Origin: Fluviicola sp.
GTDB taxonomy: Bacteria; Bacteroidota; Bacteroidia; Flavobacteriales_D; Crocinitomicaceae
Length of the DNA stretch: 64,000 nucleotides
Assembly (NCBI GenBank): GCA_049241705.1
Contig: JBMLQF010000196.1
Span: 17,946 to 81,945, forward strand
Reading direction: 5' to 3'
Shown here: positions 53,331 through 59,903 of the stretch, piece after piece
How the letters are laid out: each line of letters starts with the position of its first letter
Numbering within the stretch: the first letter of the stretch is position 1
Translations under genes and position numbers: made by a program
The notes under the pieces: generated by a model
The model's database searches: none
What the model saw: only the letters and a program-made list of their open reading frames with translations
Told to the model about the DNA's origin: nothing

Positions 53331-54584
53331 CTAATAAATGTATTTACAGGTCAATTCACAATTGTCATCTGTGTAGATCTTTAATATATAAATACCCTTC
53401 TTCAAATGATTAAGTGGTATGTTGTACTCGTATTGGCCGGAGTTGATATCAATATCATTCTTGGTAATGATCGCTTTGCCGGAAACATTATACAAAACAA
53501 ACTTGGCAACACTTTTTTTCTTGGCGGCTATATTCACATAGAGGTTATCTGCATCTGAATAGTTCGAAACTATGGTGTAATAGGTACTCGTTTGAATCGA
53601 TGGGGCAATGGATATTACTTTGGAATATCGAATTGCAAAATCTTTATCAACCATTTTCAACCGGTAGTAAGTTGTCTGATCTAAATGATTGTCGGTATAG
53701 GTGTAAGTGCAGTTTTGTGAGCCTGAACAATTTCCGGCTTGAGTAAATATTTTAGCAAAGTTTTTGTTGTCTAAAGATTTCTCGAGTTCGTAATGAGAAA
53801 AGTTCTTTTCGTTGGTCACTGACCAATTCAATTTAACATTCGATTTAACTTGTTCCGCGTTAAAATCTAATAGACTAACTCCTAATCCTGTGGGCGTGGT
53901 AATCCGAAGATCATCAATTGCTCCACTAGGATCCGTTCCTGAACCATTTCCATTGTTTCTCCAGTGGAAACCGATTCTAACATTCGGATTATTTTCAAAT
54001 GCAGCAGGAAGTGCAAGGGTGTATAAAGTCCACTGTCCTTGACTGTAACCGTTGCAGGCTCCACAACAAACACTCGTCAGACAATACTGCAATCCAACTG
54101 GCCAAGTAGCACCGTTATCTGAACTTAGTCTTAACTGTAGTCGGTCATCAGCACAGGCGGCACTTCCAAAGGCAATAAAATCAAATAATAAGGTAATATT
54201 TGTAAAACCAACTGTGCTTATTGTAGGAGAAACTGCCAACCTGTAGGTTGCATTTGCAGCGCCTGTTTCGTTAAAACTTGCTCCCATGTCTCCACCTGAA
54301 CCGGGGTCTGCTCCAACGTGCAAAGATGCATCACCAACACATGTAGATCCGCATCCCGGTGGGGTAATTCCTTCTTCAGCACAGCTAACAAACCAATTAT
54401 TCGGACTGCCTCCATTCGTGCCTCCTACATTGTTTTGAACCGTCCATCCATTGTATCCGTTTGCAAGGCAATTTGCAGAACACCCGTTGTTAAAATTGTC
54501 TGACCAAATAACCGTTTGACTTTCTCCAAAAAAGAAAATACAAAGAGCACTCAAGGTCAAAATAGGCTTAAGTTTTTGTTTCAT
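53331..54584 (-). CDS. Cys-rich T9SS type A cargo protein
   Basis: Signal peptide MKQKLK...GES|Q; about ten Cys in the N-domain; GVSLLDFNA...WSVTNEKN Ig-like domain; C-terminal LYNVSGK...KGIYILKI. Confidence 0.8.
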   Translation of the reverse strand: MKQKLKPILTLSALCIFFFGESQTVIWSDNFNNGCSANCLANGYNGWTVQNNVGGTNGGSPNNWFVSCAEEGITPPGCGSTCVGDASLHVGADPGSGGDMGASFNETGAANATYRLAVSPTISTVGFTNITLLFDFIAFGSAACADDRLQLRLSSDNGATWPVGLQYCLTSVCCGACNGYSQGQWTLYTLALPAAFENNPNVRIGFHWRNNGNGSGTDPSGAIDDLRITTPTGLGVSLLDFNAEQVKSNVKLNWSVTNEKNFSHYELEKSLDNKNFAKIFTQAGNCSGSQNCTYTYTDNHLDQTTYYRLKMVDKDFAIRYSKVISIAPSIQTSTYYTIVSNYSDADNLYVNIAAKKKSVAKFVLYNVSGKAIITKNDIDINSGQYEYNIPLNHLKKGIYILKIYTDDNCELTCKYIY

Positions 54585-55779
54585 GTGCAGCACGATTGAG
54601 CAGTATATCAATTAATAAATATATTGAAAATGAAATGATTAACACCGTTATAAGTAAAAATGTATTGATGCCTATCATTGGGGCACCAAAAAGTACGAAT
54701 CCTAACAACAGAAAAGCCCCATTTTGAATAGCTAGGAAAAAAGAATTTAAAATTTTAATGCGTCTAAAATGCAACGGTTCATCATTCAAAACGAACGAAC
54801 AAGCCCAAATTACTAGACTCATAAAAAATACGGGAAACCCGCATACCAAAGTACAGGTGAACAAGGCAACAAGAAAGATGCTAGGTCTTTGCTTTAAATT
54901 GGTTAGATTTTCATTCCAAAAAAGCATCAAAAGAATCACAAATCCAATAAAAGGGAAATGAAAAACGGTGGATGGATTTAAATTCCAATTGAGTGGGTAT
55001 TGAATTCTAGCTTGGAAACAGCCAATTATTACCAGCGTACTCCAGCCAATTACTTGCAAGACACCAAGCCAAGATGATTTGAATCTCCAGGGGCTTTTTG
55101 ATGTGAGTTTCCAATTGATCCAAACAAATAAAGGAAAGTTCAAGCAAATAAGAAAGTTGATCGTCGAAAGATCATCGGCCTGAAATTGCAGCGCGAATAA
55201 ACTGTTCAAGAGAATGATGATGTGAGGTACAAGTCCGGAGATAAACAGGAATGTATAAATAACTAAGGTTCCCAAAAATGCCCGGAATATGTTTCCTCGT
55301 TTGATCCGAATATAATTAAAGCTTGCAATGATCAGTAATACAATTTCGATGCGAATTCCGAGTGTTGCTCCTCGTGTTAAACTTGCTCCACCGATTGTGA
55401 AATAAGAGAATAATACATCCGAAAAAGAGTTAGCCGTTAGGTAATTCATTCGGGAGTGATGTCCCTGTGAAATGATTAGATCAATGATTGGTGCGGTTAA
55501 AGCAATTGAAAAAGAACAAACAACTGTGCGCATCACTTTGGTCATGTGCTCTGCGGAAAAATATTGCAACAACACGACGAACACTTGAACGATTAATGTG
55601 AACCACAAACCGATATGGACAGCATCTTCCCAACGAAAAAGACGTTGGTTCGAAAAAAATTCCAAAAACAAGCGAATTCCTAAAATAGCCAGGAATAAAA
55701 GAAAATAAGTGGAGTTGGGTGCTAAGTCTCGTTCCATTGTCGAAACCGCACGCATGAAAAAAGCATTGAATTTATTCAT
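54568..55779 (-). CDS. Multi-pass membrane protein with a degenerate UbiA-like C-terminal half
   Basis: More than ten TM segments; NDEPLHFRRIKIL resembles YSCEPFRFKRIPIL of the operon's UbiA; Asp-rich motifs absent. Confidence 0.6.
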   Translation of the reverse strand: MNKFNAFFMRAVSTMERDLAPNSTYFLLFLAILGIRLFLEFFSNQRLFRWEDAVHIGLWFTLIVQVFVVLLQYFSAEHMTKVMRTVVCSFSIALTAPIIDLIISQGHHSRMNYLTANSFSDVLFSYFTIGGASLTRGATLGIRIEIVLLIIASFNYIRIKRGNIFRAFLGTLVIYTFLFISGLVPHIIILLNSLFALQFQADDLSTINFLICLNFPLFVWINWKLTSKSPWRFKSSWLGVLQVIGWSTLVIIGCFQARIQYPLNWNLNPSTVFHFPFIGFVILLMLFWNENLTNLKQRPSIFLVALFTCTLVCGFPVFFMSLVIWACSFVLNDEPLHFRRIKILNSFFLAIQNGAFLLLGFVLFGAPMIGINTFLLITVLIISFSIYLLIDILLNRAAHETKT

Positions 55780-56603
55780 AACCGATGTATAATACCTGTA
55801 AGCTTCTTGTTAGCAAAAAAATCATTTGAAATCTGACGTGGGTTCACTTGTTTTGGAATGCAAATCGCAAAATTGGACGAATCAATTTGAAAATGTAAGC
55901 TGTCGTTTGCCCATGCTTTTATTTGGAAGGACCCAGGCACGGTACTTTCAAAAAAGTGCGTGGCAATAGCAAGCTGATTGTTCTTTTCGATAAAGAAATG
56001 AATGGTCTCCTGTTGTGGTGTGACCATCGTAACATGTAAAAAATCCGAGATCAATACCTGACTCAAAAAGCGATCACGATCCACCAAAAATGTATTAAAC
56101 AGTACTCCAGATATGCGATCATGTTGGTTTAATACATTTTCTTCTGTCCAATGTGATGGTACGGATTGACTGGTTCGCCTACAAGCAGGTCTTTTATTAA
56201 AACGATAATTATGAGTTGTTTGATCTTGCGTTTTGGTAGTCCATTTGTTATCGGAAAGTTTATAATAAAAAACGTTCATTTCAGGTTGTTGAATGTTGGG
56301 AACACGATATACTATGGGAAATGTCCGGCTATTTTGTTCAGGCAGTGAGTCGGCATAATAAACGTTCGAATTTCCCGAGTTAAAAGTCAAGATTTGCAGC
56401 AAACCATAGTTGTTTTGAATTTGATAATCGACTAGAACAGATTCATAAACGGTATCCTCCGTTAGGTAAGGCACAAAATTGGTGAGTTGAATGACCCCTT
56501 GGTTGGATTGAACTAATGGATGAGATTCCTTTTTAGAGAGTAAATTACAGGCAGAAATTGCACATAACATCACCAGTAAAGATATATAGAATCTAAAATT
56601 CAT
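55776..56603 (-). CDS. Hypothetical lipoprotein
   Basis: Start MNFRFY at 56603 (ATGA overlap with the upstream stop); lipobox ISAC; no recognised family. Confidence 0.7.
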   Translation of the reverse strand: MNFRFYISLLVMLCAISACNLLSKKESHPLVQSNQGVIQLTNFVPYLTEDTVYESVLVDYQIQNNYGLLQILTFNSGNSNVYYADSLPEQNSRTFPIVYRVPNIQQPEMNVFYYKLSDNKWTTKTQDQTTHNYRFNKRPACRRTSQSVPSHWTEENVLNQHDRISGVLFNTFLVDRDRFLSQVLISDFLHVTMVTPQQETIHFFIEKNNQLAIATHFFESTVPGSFQIKAWANDSLHFQIDSSNFAICIPKQVNPRQISNDFFANKKLTGIIHRL

Positions 56604-57580
56604 TCTTTCAAGAGTAAGGAGAAGGACTCGACAACCAGTGATGTACAAAGCAGGTACTCCAATTTCACATATTCAGGATTCTCTATCGGAAATCTTCCAC
56701 CATCCCAGCAGCCAGAATTTTTTTGTTTTCTGATTAAAAAATCACACGCCTTAATAATGATCGGGGTTAAGTTGGGATCTTGGCATTGAACTAAGGCATT
56801 TAACAGAAAGGCTGTTTCGAGCTCCGAACTGATTTTTGGTCTTGAATTTAAGCTGTCTTGAAAATTCCAAGATCCATCTTCTTGTTGATTCTCGATCACG
56901 AAAATTTTCATTTTTTCAAATAGTATACTGTCTTCGCGGCAGGCATTCAGTGCTTGCCAAATTGTATAAGCCGGTGTGCCATAATATTCCCAATTTGCTG
57001 TAAATCCTGAATCAGAAAATTGCGTGTGTAGAAATTGAATGGCTTTTTTGCGTCCATTTATAGGAATACCAGTGAGTGTTGAGGTGTTCAATAAAAATGC
57101 GGGAACACTGGGGTACGACCTGTCACCTTTGACATATGGGTTTAAAATATTCCATGACCCTGACACCAGTTGATCTTTTGTCAATAAGCCAAATCTTGTC
57201 CGGAGAGAATTTGTATCACCTTTTTGATTCAGCAATTGTAAATAGAGCGCACTTGTTTCCAAACAGACTCCTCCGCGACAGCGATTGTTGTGACAAATCA
57301 AACCGGATTCATTTTCCTCGGAACGCAACCAATTGAATGTTGGTTCTAGTCGCTCTCGATTCGAGTCGTTGACGGTAAGTAGAGCTTTTGCAACTATAAC
57401 TGTTTCCCAAGTGTTGAACAAATTATTGGTGGAATCAGCAAAGTAACCTTCGGGTTGCTGTGAATGCATCAAGAACAACTGTGCGCGGTCTATGGACTGA
57501 CCAATCTTTTTCGTGTCGATCGATTGGGCCTTCAACACGAAAGAAAGTCCTATAATTAGTGTAAGTAGCACATACTTCAT
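56600..57580 (-). CDS. Exported prenyltransferase/squalene-cyclase repeat (QW motif) alpha-alpha barrel protein
   Basis: Signal peptide LKA|Q; QQPEGYF, WETVIVAKAL, DQLVSGSW, NQQEDGSW, KQKNSGCW; no DxDD. Confidence 0.7.
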   Translation of the reverse strand: MKYVLLTLIIGLSFVLKAQSIDTKKIGQSIDRAQLFLMHSQQPEGYFADSTNNLFNTWETVIVAKALLTVNDSNRERLEPTFNWLRSEENESGLICHNNRCRGGVCLETSALYLQLLNQKGDTNSLRTRFGLLTKDQLVSGSWNILNPYVKGDRSYPSVPAFLLNTSTLTGIPINGRKKAIQFLHTQFSDSGFTANWEYYGTPAYTIWQALNACREDSILFEKMKIFVIENQQEDGSWNFQDSLNSRPKISSELETAFLLNALVQCQDPNLTPIIIKACDFLIRKQKNSGCWDGGRFPIENPEYVKLEYLLCTSLVVESFSLLLKE

Positions 57581-58515
57581 ATCTCGTGGCGCGTTGATGA
57601 AAGGAATTGCAAGGCTATCAAACCAACAAATAGGGTGTTGTGAAGTAGAAAGAGCATTTTGTCCTTTAGCTGCGTGTTGAGTAAAAAAACGATATGGATC
57701 AATCCCACGCTTCCGACCAATAATTGTAAGAATAACAGGTTGTAATACCAGATCAGTGAAGAGTACAACAAGATCAAAACAACCGAAAGAAACAAGCGTG
57801 TTCGGTGAGTTCCAAAAATAACCGGAAGCGTTTTTATTCCTGCAATCCGGTCACCTTCTACATCTTTGATGTCAATGACATTCGCACTCAATGAAATGCC
57901 AACCAGTATGAAGATGATCCAAAAAATGGGAAATCCTTCCCATTCACCGCCAGCTGCGATAAATCCTCCCATGCAGATGATAAGGTGATTCATGCCTATC
58001 AGCAGTTTTGCAAGTATTGGAATGCGTTTGAAACGAAAGGGTTCACAGGAATAGATGTAATAAATGATGGTTAATCCCAATAATATCAAGAAGTACGTTA
58101 GTCCCAACAGGAAACCTGTCGTCAAACTGATTATTAAGAATAATATCCCAAACTGGAGATAGGATTTAGATGACATGCCGCCACGGATAGTTGGCCTTTC
58201 GCGGTTTGATATCTGATCAATTTCTACATCGGCTAAATTGTTTGTGACAATTGCAAATAGCGCAGAAAAGTATAGCCCAATGAAAAACATTATCTCATTG
58301 ATAAGATTGGAACCCAAATGTTCTGAAAATGCCTTACATTGGGGGATCATCAGCGAAATCCCAAACAAATAAATCAAGAAATAATGGATGACTCGTGTGA
58401 TTCTTGAGTCTTTAAGAATAGCAAGAACGGTTATTTTGTCGCGCAGAAACAGCACAATGATTCCCAAGAGAGGGATTAAAAACAGATATGCATTTTCAAC
58501 ACGAAACATCTTCAA
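57577..58515 (-). CDS. UbiA-family prenyltransferase
   Basis: NNLADVEID...RP (58216-58242), YSCEPFRFKR, DIKDVEGD...GIKTLP (57850-57873). Start TTG 58515 or ATG 58509. Confidence 0.88.
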   Translation of the reverse strand: MKMFRVENAYLFLIPLLGIIVLFLRDKITVLAILKDSRITRVIHYFLIYLFGISLMIPQCKAFSEHLGSNLINEIMFFIGLYFSALFAIVTNNLADVEIDQISNRERPTIRGGMSSKSYLQFGILFLIISLTTGFLLGLTYFLILLGLTIIYYIYSCEPFRFKRIPILAKLLIGMNHLIICMGGFIAAGGEWEGFPIFWIIFILVGISLSANVIDIKDVEGDRIAGIKTLPVIFGTHRTRLFLSVVLILLYSSLIWYYNLLFLQLLVGSVGLIHIVFLLNTQLKDKMLFLLHNTLFVGLIALQFLSSTRHEI

Positions 58516-58634: not shown

Positions 58635-59507
58635 TTATTTCCTATTGATCAACCAAACTGCTAGAATTCCGATCAAACCACCCACGATCGTAGGCCATTC
58701 GATGCGTTCTCCCAAAATAAGAAAGGAAGATAGCGCAGCACTAAATGGAACCGTGAAGATGAAGCTACTAGCCTTTTCTGCGCCAATTTTCGCTGTAGCG
58801 TAAAAATAAACGGTAGTTGCCAAGGTGGTGGTTATGATACTGGCAAACAACAAGTTGCCCCAGAAGAGCGATTCCGTTGAGGCTGTCAAAGTTACAATTT
58901 CAGAAAAATCGGCAAATGGTAGGATACTGCAAAGAGTGATGACATACATCCACCAGGTAAAGGCAAATGGAGACCCATATTTTGAGGAACCAGCGGTGAA
59001 CTTGCTCATGACAGCCCAAATAAGCGCACTTAATAAAAAGAAGATATTTCCTGCATCCAGAAAAACAGAACTGTTCTCCCAAACCCTCAGTAAAATAAGT
59101 CCTGCAAGCACTCCGCAAGCTAAGCCAATGAATTCAAATTTCCCGGGCTTCTTCCAATCGATCAACATGCCCAATGCATAGGCAATGATCGGGTTTAATG
59201 TTGTTACTAAAATTCCACCGGCCCCAGGTGATCCCTCATGCAATCCTTGTAAGAAAGTGAAGTTGTAGACCGCCATCAGCATTCCGGCTGCAAGAATGAA
59301 TAAGATTCCCTCTCTTTTGATCCGTAAAGGAATTTTGAGAATGAACAATAGAAGCAACAAACTTAGAATTACAAATACATAACGAAAAACTCCAAGTGCC
59401 GTGGGGCTTCCAAAATGGGTGAGTACACCATTTGAAGGCCAGGAAATTCCCCAAACGATCATGCTCAAGATCATGGCCCATGTTAACTGCTTCTTTTCTT
59501 TGCTCAT
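58635..59507 (-). CDS. DMT/EamA-family transporter
   Basis: Ten TM segments in two EamA repeats (VWGISWP, LNPIIAY, KIGAEKASSF, LGERI). TACTTTTG promoter at 59514-59521 supports ATG 59507. Confidence 0.88.
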   Translation of the reverse strand: MSKEKKQLTWAMILSMIVWGISWPSNGVLTHFGSPTALGVFRYVFVILSLLLLLFILKIPLRIKREGILFILAAGMLMAVYNFTFLQGLHEGSPGAGGILVTTLNPIIAYALGMLIDWKKPGKFEFIGLACGVLAGLILLRVWENSSVFLDAGNIFFLLSALIWAVMSKFTAGSSKYGSPFAFTWWMYVITLCSILPFADFSEIVTLTASTESLFWGNLLFASIITTTLATTVYFYATAKIGAEKASSFIFTVPFSAALSSFLILGERIEWPTIVGGLIGILAVWLINRK

Positions 59508-59594
59508 CTCTTGCAAAAGTACCAAAAGGCTTGAACGAATGATAATATTTGCCAAAATCGCTCGTGAGGTGAAAAAAGTGTGTAACTTCGAGAT

Positions 59595-59903
59595 ATGGAA
59601 AACAATGAGAATCACATCAACATCGAGTTATCTGAGGAGTTAGCGGAAGGAGTTTATTCGAACTTGGCGGTAATTACACATTCTCAGGCTGAGTTTGTTA
59701 CGGATTTCATTCAAATGATGCCGGGGATGCCGAAAGCTAAAGTACGCTCGCGCGTGATCATGTCGCCACAAAATGCAAAACGATTGATGAAAGCATTGGC
59801 AGAAAATATTCACCGTTACGAACAGCAAAACGGAACTATCGTTGACTCTGATTCTGGAAGTTTTCCTCCGATGAATTTTGGTGGACCAATGAGCCAAGCA
59901 TAA
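59595..59903 (+). CDS. DUF3467-like protein
   Basis: INIELSEELAEGVYSNLAVITHSQAEFVTDF...AKVRSRVIMSPQNAKRL. Confidence 0.85.
   Translation: MENNENHINIELSEELAEGVYSNLAVITHSQAEFVTDFIQMMPGMPKAKVRSRVIMSPQNAKRLMKALAENIHRYEQQNGTIVDSDSGSFPPMNFGGPMSQA

Follow-up and report, generated by a model that had tools for sequence, protein, structure and literature searches.

Some prenyltransferases are partnered by an inactive relative. Among cis-prenyltransferases NgBR/Nus1 partners DHDDS, and in heteromeric geranyl diphosphate (GPP) synthase a small subunit is the inactive paralog that partners the active enzyme. In the UbiA superfamily (PF01040), published structures place the loops bearing the Asp-rich motifs on the cytoplasmic side, which is the canonical UbiA topology. 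CrtC, to which we return below, is a carotenoid 1,2-hydratase. The UbiA-type lycopene elongase/hydratase LyeJ is known to pair with CruF, a membrane carotenoid hydratase (PMC9258230). Here we analysed a window of 64,000 nucleotides of Fluviicola sp. (GenBank assembly GCA_049241705.1, contig JBMLQF010000196.1, positions 17,946 to 81,945 of the forward strand), in which one minus-strand gene (the target) encodes what appears to be a catalytically dead, shortened UbiA copy that still carries a highly conserved N-terminal domain of six helices (the N-domain). The likeness to NgBR/Nus1-DHDDS and GPP synthase lies in an inactive paralog without catalytic residues standing beside an active prenyltransferase. 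Those systems have unrelated soluble or peripheral folds and demonstrated complexes, whereas the target has an integral-membrane UbiA fold and a predicted complex, and its dead copy is joined to another conserved domain. The gene and its two parts are placed as follows.

54568..55779, minus strand: target gene, 403 residues; N-domain followed by a dead, truncated UbiA domain (open reading frame list)
55096..55779, minus strand: N-domain, residues 1-228; an amphipathic helix and six transmembrane helices, an uncharacterised domain
54571..55095, minus strand: predicted dead UbiA-fold domain, residues 229-403; counterpart of UbiA helices 1-6

The 403-residue target matched no family in Pfam or NCBIfam, and every one of its more than 190 homologs is a Bacteroidota protein without a name. 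Profile comparison with hhalign related its C-terminal half to UbiA: an alignment of 43 target homologs (A1) matched an alignment of 14 UbiAs of the type encoded in the same operon (A3; the operon's own enzyme is the cassette UbiA) with a probability of 97.7% and E 2.3e-12 over 192 columns, and the C-terminal domain alone gave 97.5% and E 5e-12, the span across comparisons being 177-192 columns. As a control for hydrophobicity the N-domain was compared with the same UbiA profiles and scored a probability below 1%. A search with the cassette UbiA returned, beyond its orthologs, proteins of 500-545 residues in which about 230 target-like N-terminal residues precede an intact UbiA. The C-terminal domain matched the UbiA part of these fused proteins (probability 97.7%, E 1.7e-12), and at full length the target family aligned with them in register over 431 columns (E 2.8e-47). 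An AlphaFold2 (AF2) model of the full-length target (predicted local distance difference test score, pLDDT, 89; predicted template-modelling score, pTM, 0.84) had as its top Foldseek match 4tq5, the A. fulgidus UbiA homolog (probability 0.91, 173 columns; about 175 over the AfUbiA entries).

Single-sequence and family-level searches were of mixed sensitivity. In a single pairwise BLASTP comparison, target residues 290-381 aligned with residues 100-205 of the cassette UbiA (E 1e-4); a hidden Markov model (HMM) of the cassette UbiA matched about half of the target family members at 15-45 bits; PF01040 was matched by one of 43 members (E 0.0023), and the target itself had no match to it above the Pfam gathering score; and the target-family profile found nothing among PDB sequences at E up to 10. 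The initial annotation had linked the target to the operon's UbiA through one short motif at about 54748-54786. That motif, LNDEPLHFRRIKILNSFFLA (residues 331-350, 54730-54789), does align with YSCEPFRFKRIPILAKLLIG of the UbiA, and the resemblance reaches well beyond it, both in profiles (E 2e-12 to 5e-12) and in structure. The C-terminal half shares descent with UbiA and apparently its fold, with equivalents of helices 1-6. Set against the superfamily and its solved members (M. jannaschii digeranylgeranylglyceryl phosphate (DGGGP) synthase 6m31, chlorophyll synthase 9sau and the A. fulgidus homolog 4tq3), it appears to share the fold of those helices and a probable remnant of the HL4-5 motif but lacks the Asp-rich motifs, the HL2-3 cap, helices 7-9 and a PF01040 match. 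Characterised UbiAs, of about 280-300 residues, have no counterpart of the 228-residue N-domain, and the live cassette UbiA is a regular member of the superfamily.

Four segments of the C-terminal half mark what was lost and what was gained.

54883..54921, minus strand: FWNENLTNLKQRP, residues 287-299; place of the lost first Asp-rich motif, HL2-3 cap loop deleted (alignments)
54730..54789, minus strand: LNDEPLHFRRIKILNSFFLA, residues 331-350; probable remnant of the UbiA HL4-5 motif YSxxPxRxKR, E333 nearly invariant and P335 invariant
54985..54999, minus strand: YPLNW, residues 261-265; family-specific motif in the predicted outer loop between UbiA helices 1 and 2
54670..54687, minus strand: GAPMIG, residues 365-370; family-specific conserved loop, predicted to be an outer one, between UbiA helices 5 and 6

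Where the live UbiA has its first Asp-rich motif (TNNLADVEID...RERP), the target reads WNENLTNLKQRP; the alignments bore out the placement of FWNENLTNLKQRP opposite this motif that the initial annotation had proposed. WNENLTNLKQ occupies the position where an N/DxxxDxxxD motif would end helix 2, and the HL2-3 cap loop is deleted in the alignment with live UbiA. The target terminates right at the expected start of the second motif (NVIDIKDVEGD; DxxDxxxD, at the end of helix 6) and stops after helix 6 of the nine-helix fold. To the claim that the Mg/pyrophosphate-binding Asp residues are gone, which held for the target and for the family, must be added that the dead domain is likewise truncated after helix 6. 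In a motif census of 120 family members, 119 were without the pattern [ND]xxxDxxxD, the sole match (P0077) being not conserved in the family and taken as chance, and the second motif was not found as a conserved feature in any of the 120, long members included. These long members (470-504 residues) still align through UbiA helices 7-9, to positions of about 300, so the loss of these helices is confined to the short forms. Nearly all of about 108 fused proteins examined keep both Asp-rich motifs. At the HL4-5 motif (YxxxPxRxKR) the target reads NDEPLHFRR, with the E/P pair and one basic residue kept and the Tyr lost. With the Asp motifs, the HL2-3 cap and helices 7-9 gone, the dead domain of the target should be unable to perform canonical prenyl transfer.

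Within the target family, mean pairwise identity is 0.60 in the N-domain and 0.36 in the dead domain. Conservation is lowest in what used to be the catalytic loop (column mean 0.26), which also varies in length, and the highest values of the dead domain fall in its predicted outer loops (0.75 for residues 261-270 and 0.82 for 364-372). Y261, N264 and W265 of the YPLNW motif, which is not present in live UbiAs, are invariant in the 43 sequences, as are P367 and G370 of GAPMIG. Constraint has shifted, with the N-domain now the part under strongest constraint.

The initial annotation treated this N-terminal membrane domain, put at about 200 residues, as an extra. It is real and somewhat larger, about 228 residues with six long helices in the AF2 model, and it is not an add-on but ancestral to this UbiA subfamily. 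Compared with the N-terminal part of the fused UbiAs, the N-domain gave a probability of 100% and E 2.3e-40 (hhalign). A HMMER scan with residues 1-230 returned 522 cluster representatives; most of those outside the target family were of about 500-535 residues, and Pfam and motif checks identified them as N-domain plus UbiA with both Asp motifs. Homologs with the N-domain joined to an intact UbiA, which the initial annotation had suggested looking for, thus exist as hundreds of proteins of about 510 residues spread over Bacteria and Archaea, including the candidate phyla radiation (CPR) and DPANN. Three of its conserved segments are placed as follows.

55651..55665, minus strand: LEFFS, residues 39-43, with E40, and R36 one turn earlier; R36 in 99% and E40 in 96% of 183 live fused proteins, both invariant in the target family
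55477..55491, minus strand: PIIDL, residues 97-101, with P97 and D100 at the end of helix 3; 96% and 97% of fused proteins, respectively, both invariant in the target family
55345..55359, minus strand: GIRIE, residues 141-145, start of helix 4; in fused proteins G141 100%, R/K143 90% and E145 91%

The whole core (R36, E40, H55, P97, D100, Y113, G141, R/K143, E145 and Y175) is present in the target, invariant in its family and kept in 87-100% of the 183 live fused proteins. Modelled alone, the N-domain reached pLDDT 88.6 and pTM 0.87. Foldseek found no relative of this model in the PDB (best probability 0.11; ferritin and similar helical bundles at template-modelling (TM) scores below 0.25) and gave no support to an identity as GT-C, PAP2, CruF or Pyr4-like protein; no Pfam family, CruF included, matched the N-domain in the 43 members scanned. 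A degenerate UbiA repeat was rejected at an hhalign probability below 1%.

Among reference genomes the fused form occurs in Saccharibacteria and other Patescibacteria, in Woese-, Pace-, Nano-, Aenigm- and Micrarchaeia, and further in Thermoplasmata, Omnitrophota, Bdellovibrionales, Coxiellaceae, Planctomycetales and some Bacteroidota. The gene (L028-L106) was seen above all in lineages with small genomes or a host-dependent life (Patescibacteria, DPANN, Omnitrophota, Bdellovibrionales, Coxiellaceae), and its phylogeny is scrambled relative to taxonomy, which suggests frequent transfer. No conserved neighbourhood was found in the 79 loci of fused live genes in which one was sought. Some fusions carry further domains: tetratricopeptide repeats (TPR) occur at the C-terminus, after UbiA in P0192, and the 797-residue P0220, from a Tara Oceans mesopelagic sample (0.1-0.22 um), joins N-domain, intact UbiA, the CrtC N-terminal lipocalin and Lipocalin_9 in one chain. 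Another protein, P0294, combines the N-domain with TPR and has no detectable UbiA. The target probably descends from this widespread family of about 510 residues, in which the N-domain is fused to a live DGGGP-synthase-like UbiA: with its members (for example P0135, P0138 and P0151) it shares the N-domain, the core residues and the domain order. The fused proteins keep both Asp-rich motifs and nine UbiA helices, which the target does not, and they occur in many phyla without conserved neighbours, whereas the target family appears to be restricted to Bacteroidota and to one cassette.

That cassette consists of five tightly packed minus-strand genes (53331-58515). In the window all four junctions overlap, three by a 4-nucleotide ATGA and the last by 17 nucleotides. 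The members other than the target are listed in order of transcription.

57577..58515, minus strand: cassette UbiA, 312 residues; PF01040 at 2.5e-35, both Asp-rich motifs intact (residues 92 and 215)
56600..57580, minus strand: secreted alpha/alpha-toroid protein, 326 residues, squalene-hopene-cyclase-like without DxDD; PF13243 at 6e-9 (weak repeats), signal peptide
55776..56603, minus strand: lipoprotein whose orthologs are AttH/CrtC-like lipocalins (Lipocalin_9); invariant lipobox Cys, likely start MNFRF overlapping the stop of the upstream gene
53331..54584, minus strand: type IX secretion system (T9SS) cargo protein, beta-sandwich resembling Reelin subrepeat B; Por_Secre_tail, likely start MKQKL overlapping the last 17 nucleotides of the target

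In the cassette UbiA, YSCEPFRFKRIPILAKLLIG spans residues 155-174 (57994-58053), TNNLADVEID residues 91-100 and RERP residues 105-108. Among solved structures the enzyme comes closest to DGGGP synthase 6m31 (1e-16), chlorophyll synthase (6e-15) and AfUbiA (6e-14); decaprenyl-phosphate phosphoribosyltransferase is not one of these nearest relatives. The cassette-UbiA HMM scored fused UbiA domains at 120-295 bits and the three other matching UbiA paralogs of the genome at 20-32 bits, and the cassette UbiA belongs to the same subfamily as the fused UbiAs. Its helix 1 aligns with helix 6 of the N-domain, with a KDxRxxRxxHY linker also in common, as expected for the remnant of a fused ancestor. The dead domain, for its part, is probably not a recent copy of this enzyme, because it is equally distant from the cassette UbiA (E 5e-12) and the fused UbiAs (E 1.7e-12) and forms its own clade. 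The initial description of a dead paralog of the operon's own UbiA accordingly needs amending in its last part, its homology to UbiA and the loss of the active site having stood.

The association of target and cassette UbiA was consistent across genomes. The target occurs in 14 of the 34 genomes of the window's genus and in none of 87 other relatives; in a phylum-wide sample of 401 genomes it was found only in the window's own. A cassette-type UbiA accompanied the target in 12 of 12 same-genus genomes and was found in none of 6 that lack the target; in 11 of the 12 it lay about 2 kb upstream on the same strand. In one related genome of the genus the cassette UbiA (G402:C74:46937-47839) has one in-frame TAA, either a pseudogene or an assembly error. 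The same cassette, in the order UbiA, toroid protein, lipoprotein, target and T9SS cargo, was found with different flanks in Candidatus Fluviicola riflensis, Chitinophagaceae, Saprospiraceae and another Bacteroidia metagenome-assembled genome. The cargo gene is present in all four of these other cassettes; in Saprospiraceae it stands upstream of UbiA. An EamA-family transporter (58635-59615, minus strand) lies directly upstream of the cassette in the window and probably outside it, since it was not found in the four others.

Two of the partners may connect the cassette with isoprenoid chemistry. PF17186 scored above cut-off in the lipoprotein orthologs of L025 and L027, and it is through such Pfam matches of the orthologs that the lipoprotein is linked to CrtC; the window copy has diverged and has no Pfam match, and BLASTP of it against the CrtC part of P0220 gave no direct link. 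This copy (55776-56648, minus strand) is short (about 275-290 residues), 11-18% identical to its positional orthologs, and without their C-terminal FWMGA...GTGNxYI end and Lipocalin_9 match, and so may be degenerating in this genome. The toroid protein and its orthologs (L001:6301-7041, L025:4950-5990, L026:4941-5993 and L027:5035-6030) have an invariant CHNxxCxxxxCLETSAxY Cys/His cluster in the five sequences (core CHNxxCxxxxCLETS), together with WEYY and FPSV motifs; the cluster may be a periplasmic metal site or form disulfides. As LyeJ/CruF link UbiA to proteins acting on terminal isoprenoid double bonds, so the cassette and P0220 link this UbiA subfamily to CrtC/Lipocalin_9 proteins and a cyclase-like toroid; the cassette has no carotenoid genes, however, and the likeness is one of pathway logic only. 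A literature search for UbiA/CrtC links returned nothing relevant.

Pairs of dead and live forms were also found outside the target family. At L108, P0246 (418 residues) has an intact N-domain and a UbiA half that lacks the first motif and ends at the second. At a distance of 1.2 kb lies a 511-residue paralog, 29% identical to P0246 from end to end (E 4e-50), that keeps both Asp motifs and has lost the N-domain core (R36A, E40N, H55Q, D100N, R143N and E145A). This pair (L108:5001-6257 and L108:2228-3763) is a case of complementary degeneration; its neighbours are three FAD_binding_4 genes and one Metal_hydrol gene. At L110 and L111 the dead form stands beside a live UbiA of the same subfamily. 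In L110 the dead P0309 (423 residues) shares an operon with a secreted cyclase-like toroid and a 358-residue UbiA that is 32% identical to the one in the window, and the nearest relatives of P0309, beyond its close homolog P0310, are live fused UbiAs; in L111 the dead P0252 adjoins an FAD_binding_4 protein and a 283-residue UbiA. The L110 operon (L110:989-11272), from a different lineage, also encodes Metal_hydrol and Acyl_transf_3 proteins, two PMT_2 (GT-C) glycosyltransferases and two NAD-dependent epimerases/dehydratases, and hints at an envelope glycoconjugate or lipid pathway. In a quick tree the Bacteroidota target family formed one clade (support 100), six other dead forms fell inside a clade of live fused proteins and two more elsewhere. 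Labelling of this tree required at least three dead/live changes for the dead forms outside the family alone, a count that is provisional because of long branches.

From these observations we propose that the Bacteroidota cassette splits two functions over two genes. The 312-residue UbiA would carry out prenyl transfer at the cytoplasmic face, and the target, probably an inner-membrane protein of two domains, would supply the function of the N-domain to the same pathway, its dead UbiA domain acting as a scaffold for docking and lipid binding by which the N-domain is held to the live UbiA. The polar set of the N-domain (R36, E40, H55, D100, Y113, R143, E145 and Y175) and the two motifs gained by the dead domain are predicted to lie at the outer (periplasmic) face, as six helices were counted back from the known UbiA topology; the Lys and Arg counts of the C-domain loops fit that topology. 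At this face the N-domain could then process the prenylated lipid or, alternatively, hand it to the secreted alpha/alpha-toroid protein and the AttH/CrtC-like lipocalin lipoprotein. Either role is suggested by the recurring partners (CrtC/AttH lipocalin and cyclase-like toroid), which are extracytoplasmic here and related to proteins acting on terminal isoprenoid double bonds. We assign this explanation as a whole, an N-domain and a dead UbiA scaffold partnering the cassette UbiA, a probability of roughly 65%. A broader proposal is put forward tentatively, as a possibility that we hold to be less likely than not: the N-domain might represent a membrane enzyme, or a module for lipid hand-over, of a novel type, acting at the outer face on the product of a DGGGP-synthase-like UbiA and obligatorily coupled to that UbiA, either in one chain, as in hundreds of lineages with CPR bacteria and DPANN archaea among them, or in a heteromer with a live UbiA docked by a dead UbiA domain, the split form having arisen repeatedly by duplication and complementary degeneration.

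Several points weigh against the scaffold proposal. The outer-face placement is derived from counting helices, and the physical pairing from co-occurrence and gene overlap. The Foldseek match to UbiA is local only (E 1.9, TM 0.38 on the target side). The trees, with their open backbone, do not settle if a single duplication gave rise to both the dead clade and the cassette UbiA, and the dead clade lies outside the live clade on a long branch. A dead form at L109 (P0288) has no UbiA within 5 kb, and on a 3.9-kb contig whose called genes include no UbiA, a complete open reading frame of 228 residues consists of the N-domain only.

These last two cases raise the possibility that the N-domain may work alone, with the dead UbiA half a vestigial membrane anchor and the target acting in the same pathway as the cassette UbiA without contact. 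The lack of conserved neighbours around fused live genes points the same way, the pair of domains being self-sufficient there, as does the much faster evolution of the dead domain. Yet the dead domain is retained in all 120 members and has gained invariant motifs of its own (YPxNW and GAPMIG) that a mere anchor would not need, and the architecture of N-domain plus helices 1-6 recurs beside a live UbiA in other lineages; we therefore regard an autonomous N-domain as unlikely. It is still less likely, and in our estimate very improbable, that the UbiA-like half retains a non-canonical activity, such as metal-independent chemistry in the remaining cavity, and is a divergent enzyme rather than a pseudoenzyme. 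Such activity would be in keeping with the survival of part of the HL4-5 motif (E333, P335 and one basic residue) and with the high confidence of the predicted fold, but no conserved acidic cluster is left on the cytoplasmic side, the loop that bore the first motif shows the lowest conservation in the protein and differs in length among members, and the cap, helices 7-9 and the second motif are missing. Chance resemblance of hydrophobic helices, by which the target would be unrelated to UbiA, might be read from the missing PF01040 match and the Foldseek E-value above 1 but is excluded for practical purposes by the whole-length in-register alignment to the fusions (E 2.8e-47, 431 columns), by C-terminal scores of E 2e-12 to 5e-12 against a control below 1% probability, by the cassette-UbiA HMM, which reaches about half of the members at 15-45 bits, and by the match of one member to PF01040 (E 0.002).

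On the scaffold proposal, no clear candidate for a pseudoenzyme partner precedes the target in the UbiA superfamily, and it would be the first reported pseudoenzyme there, since a full-text literature search for UbiA pseudoenzymes found no inactive UbiA paralog described. The analysis also brings to light a large UbiA subfamily that lacks annotation and carries a conserved extra domain; it extends over Bacteria and Archaea, episymbiotic CPR and DPANN lineages included. Its split live/dead pairs, among which the L108 pair offers a textbook-like example of complementary degeneration, are a natural dissection of two functions and would allow the N-domain to be studied free of prenyl transfer. In the Bacteroidota, the cassette brings the target together with a T9SS cargo protein, a lipocalin of CrtC/AttH type and a cyclase-like toroid, and these partners suggest an undescribed isoprenoid-lipid pathway of the envelope.

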